Shown: positions 38,299 to 63,223, counted from the first letter of the stretch. The stretch: DNA of 64,000 bases from Candidatus Woesearchaeota archaeon (GCA_965205335.1 OZ242164.1:64001-128000), one strand, 5' to 3'. Made by a program: numbers and translations. The notes: generated by a model from the letters alone, not told the origin.

Positions 38299-38301
38299 TT
38301 T

Positions 38302-44758: not shown

Positions 44759-44792
44759 TTAACCTCTGAATTATTTATATATTTATTCATCT

Positions 44793-45425: not shown

Positions 45426-45428
45426 TTT

Positions 45429-46664: not shown

Positions 46665-46802
46665 GTTACATTACAGAATATCCACTTATTTATAAATATT
46701 TGTGAAAATATCACAAAAATAATAGAATTTTAGTTAAATATTGTGCAAAATTTCTTGATTTTTGAAATAGGAAATGATTTGAGGGTGATAGGGTTTGATG
46801 TT

Positions 46803-46871
46803 ATATCGTTTTGCTGACGTCAGCAAAATGGTTAAAAACATCACTTCTGGTTGTCTTACAAGATTCTTTTT
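46803..46871 (-). pseudogene. dinD: DinD-like fragment containing a 24-bp palindrome
   Basis: KESCKTTRSDVFNHFADVSKTI*; CGTTTTGCTGACGTCAGCAAAATG at 46807-46830. Confidence 0.55.
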
Positions 46872-46993
46872 AAGTTCTTTACCGTTTGCGAGTACAAAAA
46901 TAAAGTAGTTTCTATTGTTTTTCTTTGAATTTTGCGGAAAATCTTCAAAAATTAGCGAAAATTATTTAAATACAGACGAATTATTCTATAATT

Positions 46994-48265
46994 ATGCTAA
47001 TTAGTTTCAAAGTTAAGAATTTTTTATCAATAAAAGATGAAATTGAGTTGAGTTTAGACTCTACATCTAGCAAATCTAATCCTAAGAATTTGTTTAAGGC
47101 GGGAGGTTATACTCTATTAAAATCTTGTGTAATTTATGGTCCTAATGCTTCAGGCAAGTCAAATATTATCAAAGCAATTTTTTTTGTATGGAATTTAGTT
47201 AAAAATTCACTTAATTTTAATGAGGATGTTAGATTATCAGATCCTCCATTTAATTTGAGGCAATTTAAATTAGATAAAAAGATGTCCCAAATGCCAAGTG
47301 AGTTTGAAATTCATTTTATTAAAAATGATATTGAGTACATATATGGTTTTTCCTGTAATGAAACTAAGATAATTAAGGAGTTTCTGAAGTATAAACCAAA
47401 GAGGGAAAATTTTAAAGAAATTTTTGCGAGAAATGAACAATCCAAAGAGGAATTCAAATTTACTCATGATAAGAATAAACAAAAGAAAATTGAGGAATTT
47501 ACAAATAAAAACACATTGTATTTGTCAAAATCAACTCAGTTTAATTATGAAAAGATAAAACCTGCTTATGATTTTCTTGCTAATGAATTAGTTATTAACC
47601 ATAATCCTGCTTCAAGTATTGATACAATGAAAAAAATCTATGGGGATGTCAAATTTAAAGATAAAGTGGTTGATATATTAGAGAGAACAGATTTTGGAGG
47701 AATTGTTGACTTAAATGTGAGGAAAAAGAAAATGAAAGTTAGGGAGATTAAATTTGAAGGTGAGAGCACAAAACTTAATGAGTTTGCTGATGAAAAAGAT
47801 TTTTATAATCTAAAAATATCTCACCTAACTAAGGATGGTAAGGTAGAATATTTTGAGATAAATGAAGAATCAATAGGGACCCAGAAAGTATTTAACATGT
47901 TAGGACCAATCTTTAATACTTTTGAAACTGGAAAAGTTTTAATTATTGATGAATTAGACTCAAGTTTACATCCGAATATTACTCGTTTTTTAGTTAAGTT
48001 ATTTAGTAGCAAGTATAATAAGAAGAATGGGCAAATTATTTTTACGACACATGACACAACTTTATTGAAAGATGAGGAATTACTTAGGAGAGATCAGGTT
48101 TACCTTTGTTCTAAAAGACCTAATGAACAAACAGAGTTATATAGTTTAGTTGATTTTAAGTTAAGAGAAGATATGAACTTTGAGAAAGCCTATTTTGGAG
48201 GAAGAGTTGGAGGACTTCCATTCATTGATGAAACTTTTTTTGATGAAAATGACGAGGAGAAATAG
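46994..48265 (+). CDS. rloA: Second RloA-like AAA_21 ATPase
   Basis: YGPNASGKSN, EESIGTQK, IDELDSSLHP, RRDQVY, Y..GRVGGLP. Confidence 0.88.
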   Translation: MLISFKVKNFLSIKDEIELSLDSTSSKSNPKNLFKAGGYTLLKSCVIYGPNASGKSNIIKAIFFVWNLVKNSLNFNEDVRLSDPPFNLRQFKLDKKMSQMPSEFEIHFIKNDIEYIYGFSCNETKIIKEFLKYKPKRENFKEIFARNEQSKEEFKFTHDKNKQKKIEEFTNKNTLYLSKSTQFNYEKIKPAYDFLANELVINHNPASSIDTMKKIYGDVKFKDKVVDILERTDFGGIVDLNVRKKKMKVREIKFEGESTKLNEFADEKDFYNLKISHLTKDGKVEYFEINEESIGTQKVFNMLGPIFNTFETGKVLIIDELDSSLHPNITRFLVKLFSSKYNKKNGQIIFTTHDTTLLKDEELLRRDQVYLCSKRPNEQTELYSLVDFKLREDMNFEKAYFGGRVGGLPFIDETFFDENDEEK

Positions 48266-48449
48266 GAATATTAAAAAATCTACTAGAACTTTATGGATAT
48301 TTTGTGAAGGTCATACTGAAGATAGATATTTTAAGAATTTGAAGTTTAATGAGCGTTTGAGAATCAAATCTAGAAATATGGAAGTTGCATATTTGCAAAT
48401 TATAGAATCACCAGGTTTTAAATTTTTTGTAGTTGAAAATAGACTTTAA
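48249..48449 (+). pseudogene. rloB: Truncated RloB
   Basis: IFCEGHTEDRYF, then similarity is lost after ~40 aa; MITE 20 bp downstream. Confidence 0.75.
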
Positions 48450-48468
48450 ATTAACAACTCATAATTGG

Positions 48469-48596
48469 GGCACTGTCCGGAAATTCAAGAGAACTTAAAA
48501 TGTTATATAAATAAAGCAATTTTTGATAAATAATTTTTTTCTTTGATTGAATATGGCTAGCATAAATTTTAGAAAAAACAATTTCAGGACAGAGCC
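48469..48596. mobile_element. Complete 128-bp MITE (opposite orientation)
   Basis: GGCACTGTCCGGAAATT...AATTTCAGGACAGAGCC. Confidence 0.88.
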
Positions 48597-48641
48597 ATAC
48601 CACCCAAGTATTTTTAAAATGGAGTATGTTTTTAATTATTT

Positions 48642-48857
48642 ATGGAGAAGCCAAAGGAAGAGATAGAAGATGACAAAGTTCAGGAGGCTTGTGGGAAACT
48701 AACTGGTGAAGAAAGAGAAATTAAGGAATTTGTGATGAAGATAAAAAATGAAGATCCTGAATTTAATTCAATAGTAGATTGTGTGATTGAGAGTGTTTCC
48801 AAGAATGGATTTTCAGAGAATACTTTTGAACAGAAATTTAGAAATAAAAATGAATAA
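48642..48857 (+). CDS. Small acidic protein coupled to the RloC-like gene
   Basis: TTTTAAAA box upstream; 8-bp overlap with ATG 48850. Confidence 0.55.
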   Translation: MEKPKEEIEDDKVQEACGKLTGEEREIKEFVMKIKNEDPEFNSIVDCVIESVSKNGFSENTFEQKFRNKNE

Positions 48858-51213
48858 GATAAAAAAGATTGTCATAACTGGTTTTAGAGGAATAAAGAAT
48901 ACTTTTGAAGTTGATTTCTCTTCAAAAGGAAATTCAATTATTATATATGGAAGAAATGGAACTGGGAAAAGTTCAATAACTGACGCTTGGGAATGGGCAC
49001 TTAGTAAAGAAATAGAGCACTTGAAAAGAGAAAATGCTGGTCCTTCTTCATATCCTCATAAAGAAGCTAATGAAACTTCTGTTACTATTGAAGCAAATAT
49101 TGACAAACAAGAATTAGCTTTTAATGTTCTATGGGATGAGAGGAATGTCATAATTTCAGATGAATCTCACTATAATAATTTCAAAGAATTAAATAAATAT
49201 CCTTGTTATCTTAGACAATCAGATTTACAAAGATTTGTCCTTATGACAAAAACAAATAAATATGAATACCTTATGAAATATTTAGGTTTAAATGTACATC
49301 TTAAAACTCAAAATGATTTAAGAACATATTATGGAAAATTAACTCAAAAAGAGGAAGAAAGTAAAGACATATTGAATAGATTAATTAACGATATTTGTAA
49401 TACTCTAAATATCACTCAATTTAAAGAAGAAATAATATTGCAAGAATTAAATAGTAATTTATCAAGATACAAAATTCCAATAGATAAATTATCTGAATCA
49501 GAATTGAATACTGTCTTAGAGAGGTTTAAAGATTTAGTTGATAAAAACCCTATATCAAAAGAATTAGATGAGTTAAAGAGGATTCAAAAAGAATATTCTA
49601 ATTTTTTAGATATTCCGGAATTTGTCAAAGAAATAGAAGATCTAAAAAAATTATTTGATGAACTAAACAAAAACCAAGAAAACTTTAAGAAACTAATACT
49701 TGGAGATATTTACTCTAACTCACTTGAATACTTAAACCGAGATGATATTAAGGATAAAAACATCTGCCCTGTATGTGAACAAGAGCGAAGTAATTTAATT
49801 AATTTTTTAGAGAAAAAGAGTAATCTGTTGCAAGAACTAAAAGAACAAAAATCATGTTTTGATGATTTACAAGAAAGATTAAAATCAAAATTTGATAAAT
49901 ATATTATTACTATTTCCAATATTAAGGAGATAAATAATGACTTTGTTACAGAAAAAAATTCTTCTTTTAATATCTCATTAAAATTATTAAATTCCTTAAA
50001 GAATAATTGTGAAATAGATATACTGGATATTAGAAATTTTAAGGAGTTAACTAATTCTGATAGAAAATTAATCTTTTCAGTATTAAATGATGAAGTATTT
50101 ACAGACAAATTGAACAATAAAGTAGATAAGCTTGAGAAACCTACTAGCGAAGATAAACTGAGTGAAGTATTTCAAAAGATATCTACCTTTAACGATTTAA
50201 TTTCAGAATATTGGAATAAAGATGAGGAATATGAATTACTAAAGTTTGAGAAGGAAAGTTTTAGAATAATCTTTTCAGAATTTACCTCATATGTTAAATC
50301 GAGACTAAATAAAAAGTTTGATATTATTAAGGAAGATATTTCTAATTTTTTTAATGTTTTAGAGAATAATACTAGTAGACATCTTTCAAGTCCTAAAATT
50401 GAATTATTAGACACTAACAAAGCAATTGAAATTGAAATTGGAATTGAAGATTCCAGAGTCTCACCTGCCTTTAAAATCATGAGTGAATCACAAGTAAATA
50501 GTTTAGGATTATCTGTATTTCTCGCATGTATCAAAACTTTCAACAACAATTTAAAATTTATAATTCTTGATGATATTGTAAGTAGTTTAGATGGACATAA
50601 GAAGGATAATTTACTAAAATTATTAAATGATTATTTTAGAGATTATCAAATATTAATGCTTACTCATGATAACCTTTGGTTTAATAAAGTAAGAAATAAG
50701 TTTAGGAACTGGAAAATACAAAAATTTACTGGTTGGAAATATAATCATGGACCTATTACTATTAATAGTGGTGGAACAATCGAGGATATTAGGGAAGACA
50801 TAAGTGAAGATGACTCTCACAGTGCTGGTCATAAACTTGGAGTTTATTTGGAGTGTGAATTGCAAGATATTAATGAAAAAATTAAATCAAATGTCAAATA
50901 CAAATCCTACAATGAATATACTCTCTCTGAACTTCTTAATAGTTTTCGGGCAAGAATTAAAGATGTTTTGGGAAGTTCACACGATGTATGTATGATAGAT
51001 TTAGATACCTCATTTAGAAATTTTGTAGACCATCATAAAAACCTTGAAGGAAATGTCACTACAGAAGATATTAGAAATGCACTTGAAGAATGGCAAAAAG
51101 TTGAAAGTATTTTGAAATGTAATGAATGTAATGAATATGTTCTTTATGATGATGTCTCAAAGAAGTTAAGATGTGAATGTCTGATAAAAATACTTGAAAA
51201 ACAAAAAAATTAG
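48850..51213 (+). CDS. Rad50/SMC-like ATPase with zinc hook and C-terminal HEPN-like domain (RloC-like architecture)
   Basis: GRNGTGKS, CPVC hook, MSESQ, ILDDIVSSLD, LTHD, RNFVDH, C-terminal CNEC..CEC. Confidence 0.75.
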   Translation: MNKIKKIVITGFRGIKNTFEVDFSSKGNSIIIYGRNGTGKSSITDAWEWALSKEIEHLKRENAGPSSYPHKEANETSVTIEANIDKQELAFNVLWDERNVIISDESHYNNFKELNKYPCYLRQSDLQRFVLMTKTNKYEYLMKYLGLNVHLKTQNDLRTYYGKLTQKEEESKDILNRLINDICNTLNITQFKEEIILQELNSNLSRYKIPIDKLSESELNTVLERFKDLVDKNPISKELDELKRIQKEYSNFLDIPEFVKEIEDLKKLFDELNKNQENFKKLILGDIYSNSLEYLNRDDIKDKNICPVCEQERSNLINFLEKKSNLLQELKEQKSCFDDLQERLKSKFDKYIITISNIKEINNDFVTEKNSSFNISLKLLNSLKNNCEIDILDIRNFKELTNSDRKLIFSVLNDEVFTDKLNNKVDKLEKPTSEDKLSEVFQKISTFNDLISEYWNKDEEYELLKFEKESFRIIFSEFTSYVKSRLNKKFDIIKEDISNFFNVLENNTSRHLSSPKIELLDTNKAIEIEIGIEDSRVSPAFKIMSESQVNSLGLSVFLACIKTFNNNLKFIILDDIVSSLDGHKKDNLLKLLNDYFRDYQILMLTHDNLWFNKVRNKFRNWKIQKFTGWKYNHGPITINSGGTIEDIREDISEDDSHSAGHKLGVYLECELQDINEKIKSNVKYKSYNEYTLSELLNSFRARIKDVLGSSHDVCMIDLDTSFRNFVDHHKNLEGNVTTEDIRNALEEWQKVESILKCNECNEYVLYDDVSKKLRCECLIKILEKQKN

Positions 51214-51217
51214 AAGA

Positions 51218-51274
51218 AAAGAAAAAAATTATTCATCAAAAATTGCTCTATTTCTTGAATTTCTGAACGGAGTT
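51218..51274. mobile_element. Internally deleted MITE right part
   Basis: AAAGAAAAAAATTATTCATCAAAAATTGCTCTATTT|CTTGAATTTCTGAACGGAGTT. Confidence 0.6.
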
Positions 51275-51307
51275 TATAGTTGAAGATTATACTATTAGTG
51301 AGGATTA

Positions 51308-52234
51308 TTAATCTTTATATTTTCCAAATACTTTACTAAACTTCTCGGATGTGACCATTAACCATTCCAAATGATAATCCCTATTATTATCAGTTATTAT
51401 AAAATTTTCTTTAGTTGCTTTAATTCTTGATGCTTTTTTACCTTCTAATTGCATCCATTCTAATTTCATATCTAATTCTTTTTCTATCTTATCTTTATTA
51501 CTTTCAAATTTGTAATATAAATCCTTTGAGTCAGGAATATAAATCTCAGTTCCTATTTGGTTTGTTTGTGAATTAATAGTTAATGCAATATGACTTTCCG
51601 AGCTTCTATAACTTAGATCTAACCAATGTTGAGGATGTGCTTTTCGGAATCTTAGCTTGGAACCTTTTTCCTTACAATATTCTTTTAGTTTATTCCAAAA
51701 CTCTAATTGCATTAATTTAGTGTCAGAGTGCCCTCCTTTTCTCTGAGAAGTTTTAATTGCTTTAGTCCACGAGTTAGGTTTTGAAACTATTTCAAATTTG
51801 GGTGCAAAATCAGAATTTCCAATTTGCCATAGTTCCATTTTAATTGCAAAGAAATTTAATTTTTCATCAGAGTGTTCATTTAACCAATCAATGGCCTGTT
51901 TGTGTTCATCTCTTACATTTTTAACTAGCCAAATAACAATTTCAGCATCATATCCTGAAGCATAAGTAATAATTTTACCTAAATGATTATGGTCTGTATT
52001 TTCTAATTGATTTTCAATAATTATTTTCCTACCTGTGATTTCTTCTTCTGCTAGGATATCCACATTATATCTTCCAACACTTGCTTCTGTTTCTATTACT
52101 TTAATTCCTACATCTATTTCTTCACTTAGAATTGCCAGATTCTCTTCTTTAACTAACCAGTTTGTGAAATCTAATGCTTCATTTTTCCATGCTTTTCTTA
52201 AATCTATTTTTTTCAACTCGCCCAAATTTACCAT
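51308..52234 (-). CDS. DUF4268-domain protein with an N-terminal PD-(D/E)xK-like domain
   Basis: W.NEA.DFT.WL, VDILA, IIENQL..TDH.HLG...YA; C-terminal QLEFW...LEW. Confidence 0.85.
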   Translation of the reverse strand: MVNLGELKKIDLRKAWKNEALDFTNWLVKEENLAILSEEIDVGIKVIETEASVGRYNVDILAEEEITGRKIIIENQLENTDHNHLGKIITYASGYDAEIVIWLVKNVRDEHKQAIDWLNEHSDEKLNFFAIKMELWQIGNSDFAPKFEIVSKPNSWTKAIKTSQRKGGHSDTKLMQLEFWNKLKEYCKEKGSKLRFRKAHPQHWLDLSYRSSESHIALTINSQTNQIGTEIYIPDSKDLYYKFESNKDKIEKELDMKLEWMQLEGKKASRIKATKENFIITDNNRDYHLEWLMVTSEKFSKVFGKYKD

Positions 52235-52364
52235 AAGGTATTATTAATTTGATTCTTTATAAAGATTTTTGTTAAAAGATACTGTTAAATTTGAGGGTGT
52301 TTTTATTTACTGATATAAAGTAGTACAATTCTCTTATAAAATATATTTTATTAACTAATTATAC

Positions 52365-52919
52365 ATGGCAGAAGCAACTGAAGAATTAGTAAAAGTATAT
52401 CTTGAACAAAAAGGATATTTAGTTACAACATCTAAAAAAATAGATGTGAGAACAACAAAAAACAGCCCAAGAACAGAACTTGATTTAATTGCAGTCAAAA
52501 CAGAAGGTAAAGATAAAGATGGTTTACCGTCAAGAATCTTAGGGGAAGTAAAAGGATATGGAATACATCATCGTCTTTTTAAAGAACTAGATGAAAAATT
52601 ACGTAAAAGAGATGAATATGAATCACGGGAAGAATATGGGAAATTCAAATATTACAATAATAATGAATATAAAAGAGAAATATTAAATAAACTAAAAGAA
52701 GAATATGGTTACAAAGATTTTACATGTGTTTTGTTTTGTTATAGTATTAATGGAAATTATGAACAAGAAATTAGAGAATTTCTTGAAAAAGAGAATATAA
52801 TGATTGTTCTACTTGCTGATGTTCTGAAATATTTATTTGAAGAAAGTAATACAGAGTATAATAATCATCCAATACTTAATACAATTAGTTTAATTAAAAA
52901 AAGTAAATTATCTTTTTGA
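52365..52919 (+). CDS. PD-(D/E)xK nuclease, copy 1
   Basis: EELVK.YLEQKGY, ELDLIA, LGEVKG. Confidence 0.75.
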   Translation: MAEATEELVKVYLEQKGYLVTTSKKIDVRTTKNSPRTELDLIAVKTEGKDKDGLPSRILGEVKGYGIHHRLFKELDEKLRKRDEYESREEYGKFKYYNNNEYKREILNKLKEEYGYKDFTCVLFCYSINGNYEQEIREFLEKENIMIVLLADVLKYLFEESNTEYNNHPILNTISLIKKSKLSF

Positions 52920-52978
52920 TTTTAAATAATTTGAATTTATCAATTTATCATAGTTTTCTTCTTCTTTTTTATAAATTT

Positions 52979-53551
52979 TTATTTTTTTATTTTACCCCAA
53001 ATAGCAATTTTATTTTTTCTTGGGTCTTGATTTCTTGGATTTGTTTTTAGATAATTCTCTTTTTTTCTAATCTCTGGCTTTAATATTTTATTAAATTTCT
53101 CTAATTTTATAATTGCTTTCTCACCTTTTTTTATAGTTAGTATGATGAAATTAAATTTATGATTGGGAATGACTATAATTAGGATTTTATCAATAAGGAA
53201 TGCAACTATTAATTTTAGGATTGTAAGAAAATTCCTAATCAGTTTATCTATTTTTTTTCTATCTTCTTTAGAGATGTCATTTAACTCATCAATGTATTCT
53301 TTTATTATTTCAATTTCTTTATTATTTATACTAAGTTGTGATTTCATGTATTCAACTTCTTTTGAAATAAACTCTCTAAATAAGATATTATTTCTCTCTG
53401 TTTTTCTTTTACAGAAGATTAGAATTTTTGTTTTATAGTAGAAGTGTTTCAGTATTTGTTTTATTCTATAGACTTGAAGTTTGTTTAATTCAGATTTTAT
53501 CTCTCTTCTTTCTCCTCCTAATTTTTCATTTTTATTCTTAATTAGATTCAT
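52979..53551 (-). CDS. Hypothetical helical protein with a hydrophobic segment
   Basis: 14-bp overlap with the upstream gene; FLTILKLIVAFLIDKILIIVI. Confidence 0.6.
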   Translation of the reverse strand: MNLIKNKNEKLGGERREIKSELNKLQVYRIKQILKHFYYKTKILIFCKRKTERNNILFREFISKEVEYMKSQLSINNKEIEIIKEYIDELNDISKEDRKKIDKLIRNFLTILKLIVAFLIDKILIIVIPNHKFNFIILTIKKGEKAIIKLEKFNKILKPEIRKKENYLKTNPRNQDPRKNKIAIWGKIKK

Positions 53552-54422
53552 TTTTTAGTACATTTCTTCTCTCTTCTTTTAGTAATTTTTTAATGTGATT
53601 GTTTAATTTAAATACATTCCAAGTTCCCCAAGTAATATCGCAATTATCTCTATTTTTTTCATCTACTATAAAGTCTGCTAATGATAAACCATAGTGATGA
53701 TTGCAGTGATATTGTGCTATGAATTCTTTTTTAATTTCTTTTTGGTTGAATTTTTTTAATAATTCTTTGTTTAGATTTTCTTTAGTATATTTTGCATAGA
53801 GAATAGGTTTATCTCTATATAATGAAAAAGCATCTCTTGAACCATGTCCTATTAGGTATAATCTTTTGTATTCGTTGTTATAAATAATTTCATCAAGTTT
53901 ATCTTCTGTTAGGTTGGTAAATATTTTAAATTTCCATCTTCTTAGTTTTACTAATTCACAAATATATTTAAGATTAATATCAAAAGTAGGTACTAGCCAA
54001 TCCCTTAAATTAAATTTATCAAAATTTGCGATAACTATTGCAGTATCAGATTTTTTGGACTCTAATTTTTTGTATTTGTGTAAGTGGTATCTGTAAAGAA
54101 TAAATTTATATATAAGATTACAAATGAGAAGAATTGTAAGTAGGCTTATGTATGGGGCAATCTCTACTAGTCCCAAAATAATGCCGTATCCTGTAAGATA
54201 AACAAATAGTAAAGTATTAGATTTCAAAAGATTAACTAATATGATTGTACTAATTATAATATAAATTAATATTATAATATGTCCTAAACTAAAGAATTTT
54301 CTTTTCCAATTTTTTCTGTTTTTTATTTCCTTTGTTTTCTTTAGTATTTTCTTCTTATGTTCTTCTGAGTATTTCACTTTACAATTAAGTTCATCATTTA
54401 GTTTTTTAACCAATCTATTCAT
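53538..54422 (-). CDS. Membrane-anchored caspase-like (clan CD) protease
   Basis: 2-3 TMs, then TAIVIAN...FKIFTNLTEDKL...LYLIGHG...FIAQYHC. Confidence 0.6.
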   Translation of the reverse strand: MNRLVKKLNDELNCKVKYSEEHKKKILKKTKEIKNRKNWKRKFFSLGHIIILIYIIISTIILVNLLKSNTLLFVYLTGYGIILGLVEIAPYISLLTILLICNLIYKFILYRYHLHKYKKLESKKSDTAIVIANFDKFNLRDWLVPTFDINLKYICELVKLRRWKFKIFTNLTEDKLDEIIYNNEYKRLYLIGHGSRDAFSLYRDKPILYAKYTKENLNKELLKKFNQKEIKKEFIAQYHCNHHYGLSLADFIVDEKNRDNCDITWGTWNVFKLNNHIKKLLKEERRNVLKNESN

Positions 54423-54631
54423 TTTATTTTAGTATAACCAAAAACCTCATTAATAAATTTATGAAAATATTTTCCTTTCGAAGATGCTTCCATTAAATCA
54501 TCAAAAATATTTTCTGGAACATTATAATAAACGTATATACCTCCTGAGTTAAACTCTATTTCTAATTGTGATTTAGCTTTATCATATCCAACTGATTTTA
54601 GATTTGATGAACTTACATTTATTCTTTCCAT
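54419..54631 (-). CDS. KTSC-domain protein, copy 2
   Basis: VSSSNLKSVGYD...LEIEF.SGGIY.Y..VP......M.ASSKGKYF. Confidence 0.9.
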   Translation of the reverse strand: MERINVSSSNLKSVGYDKAKSQLEIEFNSGGIYVYYNVPENIFDDLMEASSKGKYFHKFINEVFGYTKIK

Positions 54632-54634
54632 TTC

Positions 54635-54919
54635 TTATCTTCCCTTATTTGAGAAACCTTTCTTTCTCATTCTTTCATTTATTGAACCATTATCGTTAGA
54701 CATTCTGACTAATGTTCTTCCATATTTATCTTTTCCAACTCTTGTAACATTAGCAGAGTTGTTTGATTTTCCAAGCATTCCAGCTAAAGTTCTTTTAGCA
54801 GAACTTGCACCTCTTCTCCCTGTTTCAGGAGCTCTAACATTAGTAAGTCTGAAATTTTCACCATTGGCAAACTTTCCAGAATCACCATCAAATAGTTTTT
54901 TTATTTTTCTTTTTACCAT
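54635..54919 (-). CDS. Minimal thermonuclease (SNase-like) protein without signal peptide
   Basis: DGD, RL..VRAPE, DKYGRTL, IN..M...G. Confidence 0.8.
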   Translation of the reverse strand: MVKRKIKKLFDGDSGKFANGENFRLTNVRAPETGRRGASSAKRTLAGMLGKSNNSANVTRVGKDKYGRTLVRMSNDNGSINERMRKKGFSNKGR

Positions 54920-54970
54920 TATAAGTATGTAATGGTTTTTAAAATATATATTATTAATCTTTCATCTCTT

Positions 54971-54999
54971 GAGAACATTGTTCTCTTTAGGAGAACAAT
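54971..54999. promoter_or_regulatory. Triple GAGAACA operator in the divergent promoter
   Basis: GAGAACA-T-TGTTCTC-TTTAG-GAGAACAAT forms two overlapping palindromes. Confidence 0.65.
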
Positions 55000-55032
55000 A
55001 AGATTAATAAGTAAATCTGACGATTAAATTAT

Positions 55033-55698
55033 ATGCCAACCGAAATTAATCCTTCTGATTGTCCTAAATTCGTAGATTATCTTAAATTCTTAAAAGGCTT
55101 AACAGATAAAGAAGTTGGCAATTATCTAAAATTAATTGGCAGAGGACATATTACAAAAGATACAGTTTTAGAAAAAACAAAGATTACTAATCAATCGCAA
55201 CCCTATAAACTTTTAGGAAAATTAGAAAATGCTAAACTAGTAAGCCTAGTTTCTAATAATAGGAAGAAAACATATCAAATGATAAATCCTAGAACTATAT
55301 TTGAGGAAATGAAAATTGAGGTAGAATCAATAGATGATGAAATTGGTTTACTTCAAGAACAATATGAGAATACTAATTTTGAACTTCAGGAGTGTGATAA
55401 AGTTCAAGATTTAAAAACAGAAGTTGAGATTGAGCATGAATTGTTCAATCTAAAATCAAATAGTTTTGAAATTGAATTTTGTGTGAAAGAAAAATCAAAA
55501 ATAATGAAACTAAAAAGATTTGATAAATACAATAAAACATCTGCAAACTTGGATTTTATTCTTTTTAAAAGTGGAAAAAATGCAGGAGTAATATTACTAG
55601 AATTAATTGAAGATGATAAATGCACTAGAGTTAGTGGAGTTAAAATTAATTCAAAAAATCTGTTCACAGAGTATAAGGGCTTAAAAAATGGAAACTAA
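55033..55698 (+). CDS. TrmB-like wHTH regulator
   Basis: GLTDKEV..YL.L......T......T......Y..L.KL....LV......K.Y...NP. Confidence 0.75.
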   Translation: MPTEINPSDCPKFVDYLKFLKGLTDKEVGNYLKLIGRGHITKDTVLEKTKITNQSQPYKLLGKLENAKLVSLVSNNRKKTYQMINPRTIFEEMKIEVESIDDEIGLLQEQYENTNFELQECDKVQDLKTEVEIEHELFNLKSNSFEIEFCVKEKSKIMKLKRFDKYNKTSANLDFILFKSGKNAGVILLELIEDDKCTRVSGVKINSKNLFTEYKGLKNGN

Positions 55699-56122
55699 AA
55701 AACAAATCATTCTAAGTATATTTCACCAACTTCAAGAAATATATGGAAGAACATATATTCAAAAATTGGTGTTTTTATTGAATAAGGAAGTATTCAAGCA
55801 AGAATTATTTTCTTATTTAAATTATAAATTCGGACCATATAGTATAGAAGTAAATTCTGAATTAACTAATTTAGTTAAAGAGGGTTTAGTTGATGAATTA
55901 GAAGAAATGTCAAAACATTCAAATAATTTAGTATATAAATATAAATTAACTGAAATGGGTCTAAATGAAGCTAAAAAATCTTATAATAATTTAGATAGGA
56001 AAACTAAAGACTTGATAAACGATTATATTAAAAAATTTGCAGATTTCACACCAACTGAGATATTGAGATATGTATATAAAAAATATCCAGAGGTTACTGT
56101 TAATAGTCAATTTGAAATGTAA
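55688..56122 (+). CDS. Panacea/SocA (DUF4065)-like wHTH protein
   Basis: GRTYIQKLVFLL, YKFGPYS, Y.LTE.G, YVYKKYP. Confidence 0.7.
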   Translation: METKKQIILSIFHQLQEIYGRTYIQKLVFLLNKEVFKQELFSYLNYKFGPYSIEVNSELTNLVKEGLVDELEEMSKHSNNLVYKYKLTEMGLNEAKKSYNNLDRKTKDLINDYIKKFADFTPTEILRYVYKKYPEVTVNSQFEM

Positions 56123-56323
56123 AGATGCTTAAAAGTACTAATTCATATGTCAAAGAGAGTTTAAACACTAAGCCAATTTCAAATAAGACTTATGATATTG
56201 AAAAAGCAATATTGAAATATACTAATGAGGGAAGAAGAAAAAAGAGTTAGAGAATCAATTAAGAAAATTATTTGGTTAAAAGGATATGTAAGGAGCAAGT
56301 TCTGTAACAACTTCAGATTTTAA

Positions 56324-57511
56324 TTATTTTTTATCTTCCAGTTTATCGGAAACTGTTAAAATTCCTTTTTTTACAGCTTGAGATTTTAACTTCAAATTAT
56401 ATTCTTTTAACTCTTTTTGATTAATTAATTTCTTTTGAGAATCATTAGGTAATGAAATGTATGCTTTTTTCTCTTCAAGTTCTAACTCTTTCAAGTCATC
56501 ATCATTAAATATGTCTTGAACGTTATTATTTAGATATTCATCATTTTCACCAAATAATACATCTACTTTTGTTCTCAAATTATTATGGTGTCTATATTGA
56601 CCAATTAACCACATAATTTTACTCTTCTTCTCAGGATCAAAATCTTTTAATTCTTCAATTCCATCTAAGATTTTAAAAGTTTGAATAATTGAACTAAATT
56701 GTTGGATAGGTATTACTTGAACTTCTCCTTTAGCTTTTCTAAAAGGAAAATTATATACATCTAAATAATTTAAAACTTCAAATGGTGCAACCAGATATAA
56801 AGTAGAAAAAACATCTTTTTGAGCGTATTTCTCCATATCTATAGCTGATTTTTTCACTGATGTTTTAATTTTTTCTTTAATAATTGATTCTCTTTTGGAA
56901 ATATCTTCCATATTAAAAATTTCTGCAGTTAATTTAGGTGACTTTGCATCAAAAATATAATACATTCCCCCAATTTCAACAGTAAATTCTGGCTCTCCTT
57001 TAACAGGAGAATCAGTTTTCACATAATAAGTTAAGTTATTAGTTTTACAATATTCCCCTAGATTATTAATGACATCAGATTCGTGGGTTCTAAACTGTTT
57101 CTCTATTTTCTCAAATTTTAGTTTAGTTTCAGCTTCCTTACCTTCTTGTAATTCTTTTTTTAACTTCTCCAAAGCTTCCTTTGCATCAGAAAAAGATTTG
57201 CTCTCTGCAGAAAATTTATTCAATCCTTTTTTCTCATCAGATTTTTTCTCTGATAATTGAGTATTTAAATCTTTTATTTCTTGACTTTGTTCAATTTCTT
57301 TATTTTTTAAATCATGATAATCATTAAACTTTTCAAATTCATTTACTAAATTATCGTAATCCTTATTTAAACTTGAGAACTCAGAATTTGCATCAATTCT
57401 TAACTTACTCGAAAATCCAATGAAATTTAAAATGAAATTCTTAAAGGATCCAACTTCTGAAATTTTAACCATAAAATTTCTTAAATTATCATAAGTTATT
57501 TTCTCTCTCAT
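56324..57511 (-). CDS. Coiled-coil plus PD-(D/E)xK protein, RmuC-like
   Basis: Long coiled coil, HE, GEPEF...IFDAKSP, MEKY...LYLVAP. Confidence 0.6.
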   Translation of the reverse strand: MREKITYDNLRNFMVKISEVGSFKNFILNFIGFSSKLRIDANSEFSSLNKDYDNLVNEFEKFNDYHDLKNKEIEQSQEIKDLNTQLSEKKSDEKKGLNKFSAESKSFSDAKEALEKLKKELQEGKEAETKLKFEKIEKQFRTHESDVINNLGEYCKTNNLTYYVKTDSPVKGEPEFTVEIGGMYYIFDAKSPKLTAEIFNMEDISKRESIIKEKIKTSVKKSAIDMEKYAQKDVFSTLYLVAPFEVLNYLDVYNFPFRKAKGEVQVIPIQQFSSIIQTFKILDGIEELKDFDPEKKSKIMWLIGQYRHHNNLRTKVDVLFGENDEYLNNNVQDIFNDDDLKELELEEKKAYISLPNDSQKKLINQKELKEYNLKLKSQAVKKGILTVSDKLEDKK

Positions 57512-57516
57512 TAAAA

Positions 57517-59420
57517 ATTAAACTTTGTACTATTATATAAAACTATCTCTCATTAATTCCTTAATTTGAATTTCCTGATAGAGTTTTTTTGCAGAGTTTA
57601 TTTGATGATTACAATAGAAAGATAATATTTCAGACTTTATTTCAATTTTACACCAGAACTCCTAAATATTTTTAAAATTAAGTACATTCTTAGTTATTTA
57701 TGAAAGATGTGAATCTAAAAAAGAAGACTACTAAAAGTTATGGGGATGGTTTAGATGGGATTTTTTGATAAATTGTTGGGAAGAAAAAAACCATCTGAAG
57801 AAGTCAAAGTATCAGGCTTAGATGATTCTATTGGAGAAATTGACCGTTGCCCGTATTGTAAAGAGAAATTAGATCTTATTCCCTTAAGAAAGAAGAAATG
57901 TCCTCATTGTGGAGAAACTATGTATAGTAGAACTAGACCTGCAGATAGGAAGAAAATCCTAATAACTGAGCAACAAAAAGATGAAGTTGAAGTACAATGG
58001 TCTAAGTACCATGAAATTCAAGAAGAAACTAAACTTATAGGGAATCCTGAATTTGCTGATGCAAAGAAAGAACTTACTAAACAATTCGGGAAAGAACCAA
58101 GTCTAAATGACGTTAAATGGAGGGTTTATAATCAGAATATTATTAAATATGCATCAGAAAGGCAATGGGGCTTATATCGTAATAATAAGCTTGATATGGC
58201 AAATCTTTTACAAAAAGAAGGGAGATATAAAACAGCATTAAGTATGCTATTTGAGGTCATCTATTTAGATGTAAATGGGTGCAATAATGTAGGAATGATC
58301 TATTCTTCTAAGTCTGAAATGGATGAATTAGGCATTAAGGAATTTGATCTAAAATTAGCTTTTATGGCTCCGGGAGTAATAAGACCTATTCAGGATTTAA
58401 TCGAGCAATTAAATCTATCAGAGAAGGAAGCAAGGAACCTATTTATTTCTGTAAATAAGGAAATTAAGCCATCAAAGAATATGCCTATTTCAGAAGATAA
58501 AGCATGGGAGAAAATTATCAAAGAGATTAATATTAATAAGGCGAATGCAAAAAAAGTGGAAGAACTTGACGCAAGCAACATAGAATCTGTGGTTAAGGAA
58601 ATTAAGGATCTTATTAAAACAAAGAATAAGGATACTCTTAACTCTATTGTCTATAAATTCAGAAATGAACATAAAACTAAAGAAATGATCAATTCTAATG
58701 CCTCAGGAATAAGAAAAGTCATTAAAACTTTACTTGATCATAAAGAAGAGGCTAATGAACTTGGAGTTTCAATTCTCTTATTTTACATAAAGAAAGATTC
58801 AGAATTATTTAGTGATATTGTAGAAGAGTATATAAAAGACAATATGAAGAAATTTGAGAGATGTCCTGAAGAACACACTATTGGAGAACTCGGAAAAATA
58901 AACCCCACTTGGGTAAAAAACTTAATACCAGAAATGATCAAACAACTTCAAAAAAATGCTGAGTGGAATACTAGAAGATTTATTGCATTTAATTTAGGAA
59001 ATATTGGATCCAAACACCCAGAATTGGTAAAAAAAGCGATTCCTATTATGATTGATTACATTAAAAATCCTACTGAAATTACGAGACCAAAACCATTAAA
59101 GATTGAAGAAAATGGAGTTAAGTTATCAATTGAAATATCTGTAAATATATTTAAGAAATATCAAACTCAATGGTTAAAAGATTCATATATTGATTCATTA
59201 GGAATGATCGCAAAAGGAGATCATGAACTTATTAGCAAATACAAATCATTATTTTCTAAAATAGCTAAAAATGACAAAAGTGAGTATTCTAGAAAGAAAG
59301 CTCAAACTGTTTTAGATCTTCTCTAATTCTTCTAACTAAAAAACTTTATAGATTAAATTTTGTACTATTATATATGATTTTCCTTTTTTAATTCTTTAAT
59401 TTGAATTTATGGACAGATCC
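57517..59420. mobile_element. ~70-bp direct repeats of an IS5-type left end flanking one gene
   Basis: 57517-57585 and 59352-59420 share ATTAAA.TTTGTACTATTATATA...TTAATTC.TTAATTTGAATTT...GA.AGA; the distal part is the reverse complement of 30654-30688. Confidence 0.65.
57755..59326 (+). CDS. Zn-ribbon plus helical/HEAT-repeat protein
   Basis: CPYC..CPHC; RRFIAFNLGNIG..HPELV and DSLGMIA HEAT-like repeats. Confidence 0.75.
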   Translation: MGFFDKLLGRKKPSEEVKVSGLDDSIGEIDRCPYCKEKLDLIPLRKKKCPHCGETMYSRTRPADRKKILITEQQKDEVEVQWSKYHEIQEETKLIGNPEFADAKKELTKQFGKEPSLNDVKWRVYNQNIIKYASERQWGLYRNNKLDMANLLQKEGRYKTALSMLFEVIYLDVNGCNNVGMIYSSKSEMDELGIKEFDLKLAFMAPGVIRPIQDLIEQLNLSEKEARNLFISVNKEIKPSKNMPISEDKAWEKIIKEININKANAKKVEELDASNIESVVKEIKDLIKTKNKDTLNSIVYKFRNEHKTKEMINSNASGIRKVIKTLLDHKEEANELGVSILLFYIKKDSELFSDIVEEYIKDNMKKFERCPEEHTIGELGKINPTWVKNLIPEMIKQLQKNAEWNTRRFIAFNLGNIGSKHPELVKKAIPIMIDYIKNPTEITRPKPLKIEENGVKLSIEISVNIFKKYQTQWLKDSYIDSLGMIAKGDHELISKYKSLFSKIAKNDKSEYSRKKAQTVLDLL

Positions 59421-59464
59421 TAATAATTGAAATGTTTATAAATATCAAGTTTTGTGTTTTTAAT

Positions 59465-60364
59465 ATGGTGAAGAAATTATTTTTTGTGCCTGAATTTATT
59501 TTGGATTCAAATCCACAAATACGAAAGTTTGAGAAATTTGATAAATTAATTGATTTTGAAGAATTTCAGAGATACTCAAAAGATTATAAACCTAAAAACA
59601 TTCTAAAAGAGTTAGACAAGGAATCATTAGACAAAGAAGTATTTAAGGAGTTAGGATTAGATAAATACGAGAAGCATATTTCATATGAAGAATTAAAATC
59701 AAGTTCAAATAAGGTTTTATCTGATATTAGTCCACATTATAACCCTAAGAAGTTTAAAAATGAGGGTATAAGAAAGAGTGTTGTTTTGAAATCCTTGCAT
59801 ACATTTGTAATACAATTTGTAGAGAATACCTATTTCAAGGATAATTTTGATTCATATTTAATTGATGTGGATAAAGTTAATGATAATAACTACTTAGGCT
59901 ATAAATTCCTATTTGAAACACGTTTCAAGTATGATTTCTTATCAAATTTACTCTCATATATTGGAAACATTTTAGAATATAATAAGTACCAGTACAATTT
60001 GGTAATTAAGGAAACTTCAAAATATAGACCCAGAGGAATTAATAAACTATTAGGGATGATTCTTTCAGACTTACAGAATTATATGTCCAAGATTGTTTTC
60101 TTTTACAATAGAGAAAGAAGACAAATTGAATTAAATTTGAGATGGGTAAAAAACTATAGTCCAGAATCTTATGAACTATCATTGGAGTTAATTAAAAAGA
60201 TAGATATTGAAATAAACAATTTAGAAGTAAAATCTAAAGAAATTGATAAAATTAGAAGTTTAATTAATAGAAACTTTCTTAAAAGACTTTGGGACAGCCT
60301 ACCTCCAATAAAAAGAATAAGAGGAAAAGTATCTGATATTGAAGGGGAAATAGAGTTCAAATAG
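59465..60364 (+). CDS. Hypothetical protein
   Basis: 299-aa ORF; TTTATAAA ~23 nt upstream of ATG 59465. Confidence 0.65.
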   Translation: MVKKLFFVPEFILDSNPQIRKFEKFDKLIDFEEFQRYSKDYKPKNILKELDKESLDKEVFKELGLDKYEKHISYEELKSSSNKVLSDISPHYNPKKFKNEGIRKSVVLKSLHTFVIQFVENTYFKDNFDSYLIDVDKVNDNNYLGYKFLFETRFKYDFLSNLLSYIGNILEYNKYQYNLVIKETSKYRPRGINKLLGMILSDLQNYMSKIVFFYNRERRQIELNLRWVKNYSPESYELSLELIKKIDIEINNLEVKSKEIDKIRSLINRNFLKRLWDSLPPIKRIRGKVSDIEGEIEFK

Positions 60365-60579
60365 AAATTAAATCTTCAAATTAAATAGAATATTCATATT
60401 TTCTGTTACTTCTTCGTTTAACTCGTGTAAACCTTCTAACTTCTCTGTAATTTTTTCTTCTGAATTCATGGTCTTGGTTTTCTTCATATTTATCTAAGGG
60501 AGTAAACATTTATAAATCTTTTGAGAATTTTGAGAATTTTTGGGCAAATGTTAGTTATTTTACCTAATTCCTATAGATA

Positions 60580-61143
60580 CTATTGAGAAAATATTTTTTT
60601 TTTATTTTTTTTAGTTAAACTAATTGTGTTAAGTATTGGATGATTGTTATACTCATTGTTACTTTCTTCAAATAAACATTTCAGAATTTCGTCATGTGTG
60701 ATAATCATTATATTCTCTTTTTTAAGAAATTCTCTAATTTCTTGTTCATAGTTTCTATTAACACTATAGCAAAACAAAACACAAGAAAAATCTTTGTAAC
60801 CATATTCCTTTTCTAATTCATTTAAGATTTTTCTTTTATATTCTTTATTATTATATGCTTTAAATCTTCCATATTCTTCTCTTGATTTATATTTATCTCT
60901 TTTGCGTAATTTTTTATCTAGTTTTTTAAAACAACGATGATGTATTCCAAATCCTTTAACTTCTCCTAAAATTCTTAGTGGTAAACCATCTTTATCTTTT
61001 CCTTTTGTTTTAACTGCAATTAAATCTAGTTCAGTTCTTGGACTACTTTTTGTAGTCCTCACATTAACTTTTTTAGATGTTGTAACTAAATATCCTTTTT
61101 GTTCAAGATATATTTTTACTAATTCTTCAGTCGCTTCTGCCAT
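60580..61143 (-). CDS. PD-(D/E)xK nuclease, copy 2 (inverted paralogue of 52365-52919)
   Basis: Highly similar protein and ~87 bp of shared upstream DNA. Confidence 0.78.
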   Translation of the reverse strand: MAEATEELVKIYLEQKGYLVTTSKKVNVRTTKSSPRTELDLIAVKTKGKDKDGLPLRILGEVKGFGIHHRCFKKLDKKLRKRDKYKSREEYGRFKAYNNKEYKRKILNELEKEYGYKDFSCVLFCYSVNRNYEQEIREFLKKENIMIITHDEILKCLFEESNNEYNNHPILNTISLTKKNKKKIFSQ

Positions 61144-61244
61144 ATATAGTTAGTTAATAAATTAGAATTTATATAAGGATTGTACTACTTTATATTGATA
61201 AATAAAAACACCCTGAAATTTAACAGAACCTACACTTAAAAAAA

Positions 61245-62201
61245 TTAAATTAATGATTCATTAAATTTGTAATAATTAATTCCAAAATTCAAATCTCTTC
61301 TTCCTAAATACATTAAAAACATACAACAAAAAATTACGCTAACATTAAATAATCCCTTTTCAACAAGTGATCTACAAGAAGATATAATATATATTGTTGA
61401 AGGATTTCTATTTATATAATCAATTTTATTTTGTATATTTACCTTTAATTTTTTCAAATTAAAACATTCTATTGTTTTTTCACCTTCTAAACTTTTAATT
61501 AAAATCTCTAATTTTCCTAAAATTGGCTGAAATATATTTTCTATTGTTAACTGATTATAATGATTTACTCCATTATTTATAATATTAATATAAGTTGGGT
61601 AATTTTTTAATTTTTTAAAATTATATTTTTTTAATATTCTTGAGTTTCTAAAATGTTCAAATAAATTTTTTTTATATCCTTGTTTAAATAATAAACTCAT
61701 TGAATTTTCATATAAATTTGGGTGGAAGAAGAATTTATTCCTTATAACTCCAAATACTTTTAAAAAATTAATAAATATCTCTAAATCATTATTAGTTATT
61801 TCATCATTAACCTTTTCCAAATATCCTAATTTTTTGCCGAAAGTATAATTTCCTTTTTTAATTTTTTTAAAAATGTCTGCTTTATATTCCTCCTTTAATC
61901 GTGGATAAGATAAAATAAATTTATCCATAAGATTTTCACTAAATAAAATTGTATTTAAAATAACTGAATAATCATTCTTAATATAGAGATTATTTTTTAC
62001 TTCCTCTAATAAATTCAACATTTGAGTATATGTTACTTCACTTTTGGGATAAGATTGTCTAGTATTATTCCCCATATTATTAAATATATTTTCTATTCTA
62101 AGATTTAATTCATCAATGATTTTGTAAATATGTGGGTTTTCGATTTCAAGTTTTCTCTCTATTTTCTCTTTATTTATTTCATATAATGTTTTAGTTTTCA
62201 T
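61245..62201 (-). CDS. HEPN-like (MtlR-like) protein
   Basis: E..MD.FI...TFGKKL..L...IRNKFFFH. Confidence 0.5.
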   Translation of the reverse strand: MKTKTLYEINKEKIERKLEIENPHIYKIIDELNLRIENIFNNMGNNTRQSYPKSEVTYTQMLNLLEEVKNNLYIKNDYSVILNTILFSENLMDKFILSYPRLKEEYKADIFKKIKKGNYTFGKKLGYLEKVNDEITNNDLEIFINFLKVFGVIRNKFFFHPNLYENSMSLLFKQGYKKNLFEHFRNSRILKKYNFKKLKNYPTYINIINNGVNHYNQLTIENIFQPILGKLEILIKSLEGEKTIECFNLKKLKVNIQNKIDYINRNPSTIYIISSCRSLVEKGLFNVSVIFCCMFLMYLGRRDLNFGINYYKFNESLI

Positions 62202-62652
62202 TTTAACTATACAAATCCTTACTCCTAGTTACTTATAAACATATTTGATTTACTCATATAACTCCACTATTCTCTCTCTCATTAAAAATAAAATTTTAGT
62301 TTTATAAAGTAGAAATACTTATTATTTTATTCATCTTTCTTCTCTATATTTTCTATCTCTTCTTTAAATAACTCATAAACTTTTTGTCCTAATTTAGATA
62401 TTTTTATATGTAATGGTTTATTATAATCATTAGTGGGCATTGACGCAATTGCTCCTTTATATTCACTTATAAAACCACACTCAATTAAATCATAATCTAC
62501 CATAGTAAAATTTTGAGTAATCTTTTGTAATTCTTTTTCTCTTTTTATTCTTGTTTCTTCATTTACTTCAAAATCTTTAATTTTTGTTCTATTGAGAGGT
62601 GCTGATTATAAAGTAGAAATTGAATTTTTTGATAAAAAATCAAATAATTAAC

Positions 62653-62949
62653 TTATCTTAAATTAATAATTAAAGTAATAACTAAAACTATTATATTTGT
62701 GATTGTTAAATAGATAAACCAATTAGTGTGTCTTTGCATTTCTTTAATTTGTTTATTTGCTAGTTTAACTTGTCTATCTAATACCATAATTTGTTGTTGA
62801 GCAAGTATTTTAACCCATTTGTCTTTTGTATCTTTGCTTAATGGTTTCCAATTTCCTAGTTTTTTATCTAATTTCTGAAACATAGTAAAGATTTTATTGA
62901 ATTTCCTTCCGATTTGTTCTATTTCTTCATCTGTGTAATGTTGTGCCAT
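62653..62949 (-). CDS. Small protein with a C-terminal TM helix
   Basis: Coiled coil plus WFIYLTITNIIVLVITLII. Confidence 0.6.
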   Translation of the reverse strand: MAQHYTDEEIEQIGRKFNKIFTMFQKLDKKLGNWKPLSKDTKDKWVKILAQQQIMVLDRQVKLANKQIKEMQRHTNWFIYLTITNIIVLVITLIINLR

Positions 62950-63039
62950 AGAATTAGTTGGAATTTAGCAAATAAATACTTTTCGGACAAAGCCGACTTT
63001 TGGAATATATTTATAAACTCTGAAGTTTTTAATTATATT

Positions 63040-63222
63040 ATGGCAGAAAAACAAGAAATTAAGAAAAATTTAAGTGGGCAAGATAGTTTAAATACAGAAT
63101 TTAAAAGTCTTGGTAAAGAAAATTTAACAAATAAAACTGCTCAACCGTCCTTTGGAGGAGTAAGCAGTTTCTTCGCTGGTAAGAAAATTACGAAGAAACC
63201 ACTAAATATAAAAATTAAATAA
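63040..63222 (+). CDS. Small disordered protein
   Basis: TTTATAAA ~23-30 nt upstream of ATG 63040; IS5-type end at 62978-62994 just upstream. Confidence 0.45.
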   Translation: MAEKQEIKKNLSGQDSLNTEFKSLGKENLTNKTAQPSFGGVSSFFAGKKITKKPLNIKIK

Positions 63223-63223
63223 A

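Follow-up and report, generated by a model that had tools for sequence, protein, structure and literature searches.

A predicted membrane-anchored caspase/CHAT-fold protein family encoded in a defence island of a Candidatus Woesearchaeota archaeon

A stretch of 64,000 nucleotides from the genome of a Candidatus Woesearchaeota archaeon (GCA_965205335.1, OZ242164.1:64001-128000), hereafter the window, was analysed around positions 52,979 to 56,122, where four tightly coupled genes on the minus strand lie divergent from two genes on the plus strand. The third gene of the minus-strand group encodes a membrane protein, called X here, that represents an unnamed, mainly archaeal family of proteins of about 200 to 290 amino acids (aa) with an N-terminal membrane anchor and a minimal domain of the caspase/CHAT type (clan CD). 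The predicted structure supports a caspase/CHAT-type fold with an invariant pair of residues placed where clan CD has its defining ones, and X is most likely a membrane-tethered cysteine protease. The gene is a sporadic accessory gene with variable neighbours, and the operon that contains it is a local composite of small conflict-type modules, with no conserved four-gene system.

The X protein starts with a basic N-terminal helix, continues with a hydrophobic region (residues 42-110) that is bracketed by lysine-rich stretches, and ends with a domain of about 170 aa that includes G192-H193-G194 and H239-C240. Most members of the family have an N-terminal hydrophobic region of about 60 residues. 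The motifs AIVIAN, FKIFTNLT, LYLIGHG and FIAQYHC, which an earlier note on this DNA had taken as a caspase pattern, were all read in the translation. X had no match in Pfam, NCBIfam, PADLOC or PHROG. A word-indexed search returned three relatives besides X itself, and an exhaustive search of 1.84 billion proteins returned 71 representative clusters at an expect (E) value of 1e-3 or lower. Nine fragments (65-188 aa) were dropped, and the remaining 62 of the 71 representatives were aligned with two proteins from the word search and the window protein. Residues H193, G194, H239 and C240 were invariant in all 65 sequences. In a 17-sequence alignment of the soluble domain, built from sequences taken from the loci, G74/H75/G76 and Q119/H121/C122/N123 were invariant. 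A profile of the soluble domain retrieved 70 proteins, all annotated as hypothetical and none with a Pfam domain, the named ones being archaeal. The closest named homologues belong to Nanoarchaeota and methanogen metagenome-assembled genomes. Full-text literature searches, including combinations of archaea or DPANN with caspase and defense, found no description of the family. Since no match to Peptidase_C14 or CHAT reached the gathering score, X was filed as a separate family of the fold and not as a member of either. The CHAT domain was found in one of 151 genomes of the phylum.

The earlier note had also proposed that the soluble part of the membrane protein is caspase-like, and structure prediction bears this out. 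The AlphaFold2 model obtained with the 65-sequence alignment had a mean predicted local distance difference test score of 88.2 and a predicted template modelling score of 0.74, with soluble-domain blocks scoring 92-98. The order of elements in the model is a β strand (127-131), a helix, a strand (165-168), a helix, a strand (187-191), G-H193-G, a hairpin, a strand (234-238), H-C240 and further helices. X is read as a probable cysteine protease because the invariant His-Gly follows strand β3 and the invariant Cys follows strand β4, an arrangement that agrees with the clan CD motif, a hydrophobic strand followed by His-Gly and a strand followed by Cys. When the model was compared with the PDB using Foldseek, all the rows listed were caspase, CED-3 or SAVED-CHAT entries, the best one being caspase-3 (1nms, E 6.3e-4, prob 0.99). 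A VIA-align comparison with 48,161 representative PDB chains placed SAVED-CHAT 8tl0_A at the top (Z 9.4, root-mean-square deviation 4.0, 151 aligned residues, X 123-288 against CHAT 304-465), followed by caspase-8 (Z 8.4) and caspase-9 (Z 8.2), and further down by Dronc, metacaspases, MALT1, GPI8, DdvA, legumains, c-FLIP and Csx29. By title, rows 1 to 28 (Z 9.4-6.3) were clan CD-type entries (caspase, metacaspase, paracaspase, legumain, GPI8 or CHAT), save 3bij, whose title gives no more than GSU0716. A clearly unrelated chain first came up at rank 29, and Rossmann-like or flavodoxin-like chains appeared from there on at Z 6.2 or lower. A second look with VIA-align gave 143 of 999 chains at Z of 8 or higher, and the top 50 were all caspases or SAVED-CHAT. 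Independently of this, the structures nearest to the ESM Atlas model of P0003, a homologue 50% identical to X, include clusters of CHAT and of caspases (TM score 0.40-0.44 over 137-147 residues), which were marked 'under the bar'. Caspase-domain proteins were also near the top when X was compared with the viral structures of BFVD, none of them at E of 0.001 or lower.

The distribution of X is patchy. It was detected in four of the 201 genomes of the order, including the window's own (the other three being weak matches), in neither of the two genomes of the same genus, in 7 of 401 genomes of the class and in 39 of 401 genomes of a methanogen class. None of 52 pattern matches in viral contigs was confirmed as a relative, and tblastn with the X domain as query matched none of 72,556 plasmid and 50,697 phage records. 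The neighbourhoods examined comprised 21 related loci from public genome and metagenome collections, which correspond to 16 distinct places, 12 of them with usable flanks, plus five loci from the window's own class and 20 from the methanogen class. Neighbours related to defence, restriction-modification (R-M) or mobile elements were present at 10 of the 12 collection loci with flanks, 2 of the 5 own-class loci and 6 of the 20 methanogen loci. Type I R-M subunits flank X or lie within a few kb of it at seven of the 37 distinct loci (L005, L006, L018, L020, L022, L093 and L096), a proportion that has no background rate. The gene orders at these places are hsdS-152aa-X-hsdM (L005), hsdS-154-164-X-PDC-S13-hsdM (L006), TIR-hsdS-294-DSPc-X-Panacea-like...hsdR (L018), X-Fic-hsdR (L020), hsdS-nucleotidyltransferase (NTase)-Cap15 two-transmembrane (2TM) effector-X...Fic (L022), hsdS-X...Fic-hsdR (L096) and, in a methanogen Type I R-M operon (L093, G705:C3:99100-111700), hsdM-hsdS-NTase-Cap15-DSPc-X-Panacea-like...hsdR. 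The cargo of this last operon is five genes long from hsdS to hsdR and consists of a nucleotidyltransferase of the cyclic-oligonucleotide-based anti-phage signalling system (CBASS) type, a Cap15-like 2TM effector, a dual-specificity-phosphatase-like (DSPc) protein, X and a Panacea-like protein. The trio DSPc-X-Panacea-like is common to L093, L018 and L021, where it is the arrangement recorded. Other copies of X were found near DarT-macro, a DNA methylase and HerA/nSTAND (L016), a PDC-S13-like Bro-N protein and a nucleotidyltransferase (L009), a PD-(D/E)xK protein (L007), an integrase and CcdA (L002), a Panacea-like gene and Fic (L110), a transposase and a Type IIG R-M system (L054), or Cas1 and HNH (L055). 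An integrase lies just upstream of X in L103 and L106, and a methylase is 5 kb away in L111. In L056 (G510:C4:59300-69800), the X homologue sits between Ser/Thr kinase genes of 694 and 800 aa, with 4-bp overlaps. The 20 methanogen loci showed no conserved neighbours beyond closely related cassettes.

Several points weigh against reading X as a caspase-fold protease and conflict effector. No sequence method ties the family to clan CD: none of the 65 members matches Pfam at E of 0.01 or lower, and below threshold (E of 10 or lower) CHAT was hit by two of the 65 (best 0.011) and Peptidase_C14 by one (0.058). Sequence-profile searches of the PDB reached caspase-3 6wi4 only at E 1.1 and 0.44, which are not significant, and over the first two strands. 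In hhalign the X-domain profile and a single CHAT sequence, a low-power test, gave a probability of 0.2 with the dyad unaligned. The Z scores are middling, given that a model lacking any true match usually has a best Z of 7-8. The residue ahead of the Cys is His, where Ala is the usual one in clan CD, and a metal site or other chemistry is also conceivable. The model has no strand of three or more residues past the Cys strand, so the part that corresponds to the caspase p10 seems to be replaced by helices. The hydrophobic stretch of 68 residues could form two or three helices. With respect to the genetic context, loci with recognised defence, R-M, toxin-antitoxin or mobile neighbours inside the retrieved flanks add up to 18 of the 37 distinct ones, which is guilt by association with no background rate. 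Fourteen of the 20 methanogen loci had no match to a limited local library of about 50 proteins, and L003, L004, L052 and L053 are housekeeping contexts, near genes for purine synthesis, topoisomerase/eRF1, pyrophosphatase, glycosyltransferase and TFIIB.

The locus in the window is outlined in Table 1. All the features that the earlier note had described (six genes with their overlaps, sequence motifs and the operator-like site) were present where it had placed them. On the minus strand, the SNase-like and KTSC genes are separated by a 3-bp gap, the stop codon of the KTSC gene and the start codon of X share a 4-bp ATGA overlap, and X overlaps the gene for the 190-aa protein by 14 bp. On the plus strand, the TrmB-like and Panacea genes overlap by 11 bp.

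Table 1. Features of the X locus and of the defence island upstream of it, in window positions
Feature	Position	Strand	Basis or remark
190-aa lysine-rich ORFan	52979..53551	-	One hydrophobic segment, residues 107-133; hydropathy
X, 294-aa membrane-anchored protein	53538..54422	-	Caspase/CHAT-fold domain predicted
KTSC-domain protein, 70 aa	54419..54631	-	Pfam KTSC
Truncated SNase-like protein, 94 aa, basic	54635..54919	-	Pfam SNase, PHROG 452 endonuclease
Operator-like site	54971..54997	.	Palindrome plus third half-site, inside 113-bp divergent promoter region
TrmB-family winged-helix regulator-like protein, 221 aa	55033..55698	+	Pfam TrmB, marginal
Panacea (SocA/DarG-C-like) domain protein, 144 aa	55688..56122	+	PADLOC PDC-M19A, PHROG 14939
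Type III R-M, res and mod genes	35746-40233		Defence island
Old-family ATPase-TOPRIM nuclease	40584-42068	-	PADLOC Old 7.9e-58
Second KTSC gene	42078-42284	-	Pfam 1.5e-19
AAA_21 plus RloB	44793-46664		Defence island
Further AAA_21 ATPase	46994-48265		Defence island
LmuB-like SMC ATPase	48787-51213		Defence island
PDC-S11/DUF4268 protein	51308-52234	-	PADLOC 5.2e-117

The four minus-strand genes had been proposed to form one system, and the comparison with other loci spoke against it, as no other examined X locus carried homologues of the partner genes. The 21 related loci from the collections had no KTSC, SNase, 190-aa or TrmB homologue, and no homologue of the flanking 184-aa, PDC-S11 or 395-aa genes (phmmer, E of 1e-3 or lower). 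The same four partners had no homologue at the five loci from the window's own class or at the 20 methanogen loci (E of 1e-4 or lower). Since the partners are absent from the other X loci examined, the four-gene operon is a one-off local composite and not a system, and the reading of it as a sensor-protease-effector operon was an over-reading that is now removed. The 190-aa protein does have the hydrophobic segment ascribed to it. Its proposed role as the effector of a conserved system was not sustained: among 5.8 billion proteins it matched only itself, with no homologue, and searches of Pfam, PADLOC, NCBIfam and PHROG returned no family at a significant E value. A positional counterpart was also sought. 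Of 40 X copies, 27 are followed within 120 bp by a co-directional open reading frame. Only eight of these 27 frames have a hydrophobic segment, and no pattern emerged. The comparison with PADLOC-DB 2.0 that the earlier note had suggested gave no match at E of 0.1 or lower for the 190-aa protein, X, the KTSC protein or the SNase-like protein; only the Panacea protein matched.

The two remaining minus-strand genes may form a unit of their own. The KTSC protein matches Pfam PF13619 over its full length (profile positions 1-58 of 58, E 6.2e-25, 87.1 bits against a cut-off of 25). The second KTSC protein of the window is 43% identical to the first, and its gene lies 9 bp upstream of the Old nuclease gene, so that KTSC stands beside a nuclease twice in the same island. 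KTSC occurs in only four of the 201 genomes of the order (counting the unpublished G132), and there it has other partners. At L057, for instance, these are a C5 methylase, an ASCH protein and a ClpP-like protease. With 24 Lys plus Arg among its 94 residues, the SNase-like protein is basic, and it is signal-less, both as had been noted before; it has no hydrophobic segment. Its match to Pfam PF00565 (E 6.7e-7, 30.2 bits, cut-off 21) spans only profile positions 2-74 of 107, and it matches PHROG 452, an endonuclease family, at 1e-8. Aligned with thermonuclease chains, it retains counterparts of D21, R35, E43 and R87, Arg replaces D40 and the C-terminal third is missing. The numbering is that of the S. 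aureus nuclease, whose complete set comprises D21, D40 and T41 at the calcium site together with R35, E43 and R87. A published account presents KTSC as a domain that binds DNA and is linked to endoDNases in conflict systems (PMC9503650). On the basis of this account and of the other KTSC partners, the SNase-like and KTSC genes were read as a small unit of their own.

Between the two divergent units, the sequence GAGAACA-T-TGTTCTC-TTTAG-GAGAACA comprises a palindrome (54971-54985) and a third GAGAACA (54991-54997). The exact palindrome occurs once in the 1.2-Mb genome. A genome-wide count of perfect palindromes with 7-nt arms, a loop of 0 to 3 nt and at least three G/C per arm gave 134, and this one alone (1/134) has a third half-site within 12 nt. 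A looser version of the operator, with two mismatches allowed, was not discriminating, as it was matched in 29 of 100 shuffles of the window. GAGAACA was also considered as a repeat of a clustered regularly interspaced short palindromic repeat (CRISPR) array at genome positions 45027-45876, outside the window, where a 60-nt tandem repeat of about 15 units has variable positions in every unit. As it contains no unique spacers, this region is not a CRISPR array; it was read as coding and unrelated to the operator.

The proposal of a TrmB/Panacea pair with a triple operator was sustained: the genes are present and the operator is unique in the genome. The TrmB label is marginal (PF01978, 8.2e-6, 26.0 bits against a cut-off of 25.6) and the Panacea protein falls below the Pfam cut-off for SocA_Panacea (5.5e-4, 21.3 bits, cut-off 25.7). 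The latter protein also matched PADLOC PDC-M19A (1.5e-18), PHROG 14939 (5.5e-16) and the NCBIfam DarG C-terminal region (8.5e-5). The N-terminal 90 or so residues of the TrmB-like protein match proteins of about 250 aa in 93 of the 201 genomes of the order (including the unpublished G112, G132 and G183), and this domain is, judging from such matches, a generic one. The two genes were also examined as a conserved pair, and this was discarded: in the order, the 14 TrmB-like loci that matched best all lack an adjoining Panacea gene.

The host genome is a single contig of 1.2 Mb, 95% complete, with about 31% G+C (about 25% in the window), and an archaeal small-subunit rRNA model scored 1320 bits against it. 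The X locus sits in a dense defence island: the Type III R-M genes, Old, AAA_21 plus RloB, the LmuB-like ATPase and PDC-S11 are all within 17 kb upstream. The segment 35746-51213 also includes a HATPase_c fragment and three AAA_15/AAA_21 ATPases, one of which is followed by RloB. A second copy of the PDC-S11/DUF4268 gene, with 94% identity, is located about 19 kb away at genome positions 135653-136576, outside the window. A 631-nt inverted repeat, 87% complementary, has its arms at 52277-52907 and 60601-61231. Each arm contains a gene for a paralogue of about 185 aa (52365-52919, plus strand, and 60580-61143, minus strand), and the two proteins are 82% identical and match no family. The 7.7-kb segment bracketed by the arms holds the six genes and the operator-like site of the X locus and three unannotated genes (395, 523 and 310 aa), and it may be an invertible or recombining cassette. 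The 523-aa protein (57755-59326, plus strand) has an N-terminal zinc ribbon, weak HEAT-repeat matches and a weak match to NCBIfam MADS5 (1.3e-4). Direct repeats of 72 nt, 78% identical, lie upstream of its gene (57511-57582) and of the next one (59346-59417). No Rfam family was found in 48000-64000 and no tRNA in the window. The DNA of window positions 44001-64000 had no match in the two same-genus genomes, a search run without a positive control that shows little.

Considering all the evidence, we favour with moderate confidence the interpretation that the locus is a local composite and that X is a membrane-tethered, probably proteolytic conflict effector. X would be a self-contained conflict effector or toxin-like protease that stays latent until triggered and then cleaves cellular or viral targets. 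Its catalytic domain would be on the cytoplasmic side, because lysine-rich stretches are found on both sides of the hydrophobic region. The SNase-like and KTSC proteins would act as a separate DNA-binding/nuclease pair, and the 190-aa ORFan would be a lineage-specific add-on. The TrmB-like protein, possibly together with the Panacea protein, would bind the palindrome and its additional half-site and control the promoters of the two divergent units, in the way known from type II antitoxin/regulator pairs.

An alternative is that X is a toxin-like effector restrained by the Panacea protein, in the manner of PanAT systems, with the TrmB-like gene supplying the helix-turn-helix (HTH) of the antitoxin, the pair repressing both promoters at the triple operator, and the SNase/KTSC and 190-aa genes as passengers. 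A Panacea-like gene is indeed found downstream of X in one methanogen lineage. Its product is 29% identical to the window protein (E 1e-12) and matches PADLOC PDC-M19A at 1.4e-13. In L093 it overlaps X by 11 bp when the frames are taken from stop to stop (a 28-bp gap when counted from the first start codon), and in L021, L018 and L110 the distance is 37 bp, 430 bp and about 1.7 kb, respectively. The X protein of the window is about 25% identical to that of this lineage, so that the Panacea gene divergent from X in the window represents a second, independent co-occurrence. A study of PanAT pairs (Panacea/DUF4065) reports 343 PanA antitoxins with an N-terminal HTH, and membrane proteins among the PanT toxins (PMC8832971). 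Against the alternative, a search of 47 locus files with a Panacea-like hidden Markov model found such genes near X only in these four related loci and in the window. In L018 the Panacea-like protein bears a UPF0175 tail and the next gene encodes a DUF3368 protein, so it may have a toxin of its own. In the window, the Panacea gene is 1.3 kb away from X and divergent from it, its co-directional, overlapping partner being the TrmB-like gene, and the lack of a Panacea gene next to the 14 TrmB-like loci counts in the same direction. We consider this explanation unlikely.

A second alternative is that X has no role in immunity and is a housekeeping or niche membrane-associated enzyme, such as a processing protease or a legumain/GPI8-like transpeptidase, or else a catalytically silent scaffold, carried in variable regions. 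The four housekeeping contexts, the L056 copy between two kinase genes, and the 14 methanogen loci that lack a recognisable defence neighbour in the limited library all agree with it, and the structural matches include glycosylphosphatidylinositol transamidase and legumain (Z 6.7-7.2). A housekeeping function does not fit the patchy distribution of X, its absence from both same-genus genomes and its ever-changing neighbours, nor its recurrence near or between Type I R-M genes and by CBASS-type NTase/Cap15, DarT, Fic, Cas1 and integrases. It is distinctly doubtful. Least credit is given to the cascade proposed in the earlier note, a single inducible system in which sensing of nucleic acid by the SNase-like and KTSC proteins would activate X, and X would cleave and release the 190-aa membrane protein as a death effector: the tight coupling of the four genes, the supported caspase fold of the X model, the putative regulated divergent promoter and the precedent of type IV Thoeris, which combines a TIR protein with a caspase-like protease (10.1101/2024.10.24.620036), are outweighed by the absence of SNase, KTSC and 190-aa homologues from every other examined X locus, the ORFan nature of the 190-aa protein, the rarity of KTSC in the order and its other partners there, the missing metal ligand and C-terminal third of the SNase-like protein, the lack of a PADLOC model for any of the four genes, and the purely conjectural nature of SNase/KTSC sensing that feeds a protease.

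In our favoured interpretation, X is a new caspase-fold family, as modelled, that lies in a defence island and is probably conflict-related. Pfam, NCBIfam, PADLOC and PHROGs all miss the family, yet in methanogens and in archaea with small genomes it recurs in the vicinity of R-M and defence genes. If active, X would be a very small caspase core that is anchored in a membrane and amenable to experiments, and it could serve as a new marker by which defence islands are recognised in archaea. In bacteria, proteases of the caspase family have lately come to light as executioners of immunity; examples are craspase, SAVED-CHAT, type IV Thoeris and the activation of gasdermins. To our knowledge, almost nothing comparable has been described in archaea. 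As a tentative and rather improbable extension, X could found a new class of minimal membrane-tethered caspase-fold proteases that are latent abortive-infection effectors of archaea, carried as cargo of R-M operons and defence islands and restrained by Panacea antitoxins in at least two lineages. Such a class would be the archaeal counterpart of the recently found bacterial caspase-like immune proteases.

Among known systems, the CHAT proteases SAVED-CHAT (8tl0), the best structural match, and TPR-CHAT Csx29 of craspase (7y9x) resemble X in the His and Cys on consecutive strands and in their location in defence loci. They differ from X in that the latter lacks a SAVED, TPR or other sensor domain, has a predicted catalytic core of about 170 aa on a membrane anchor, does not reach the Pfam CHAT cut-off and has no CRISPR type III context in the window. 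Caspases, metacaspases and paracaspase (Peptidase_C14) have the same fold as the X model, including the hydrophobic strand-His-Gly and the strand-Cys, whereas X has no significant sequence similarity to them, has His instead of Ala before the Cys, seems to have helices in place of the p10 part and is membrane-anchored. Size and host domain of life also set X apart from these known proteases. A third comparison concerns the genomic setting. PrrC/RloC-type effectors are latent suicide anticodon nucleases embedded in Type I R-M operons. X in turn lies between or beside hsdS, hsdM and hsdR in the seven loci listed above; it differs from these effectors in being, as predicted, a caspase-fold membrane protein and not an anticodon nuclease, and in the window no Type I R-M system is next to it. 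DdvA (PMC11506125) is like X a membrane protein with a CHAT-type His-Cys module and is linked to defence-island control, and it matched the X model at Z 7.1. It is a bacterial single-pass TPR-CHAT anti-sigma factor of roughly 1000 aa with a periplasmic CHAT; X does not have these features, and its domain is probably cytoplasmic. With PanAT (PMC8832971), the likeness consists of the overlap between a Panacea gene and an HTH gene beside the operon, and of the Panacea-like gene after X in one methanogen lineage. It differs in that the window Panacea protein is below the Pfam cut-off, the co-directional partner is TrmB-like and not a recognised toxin, and the pairing with X is seen in two lineages only. 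Type IV Thoeris (10.1101/2024.10.24.620036) differs from the window, where X has no TIR neighbour; a TIR gene is found about 3 kb upstream of X, beyond hsdS, in L018 and L022. Its caspase-family protease, which acts as an abortive-infection effector, provides the working model for X.

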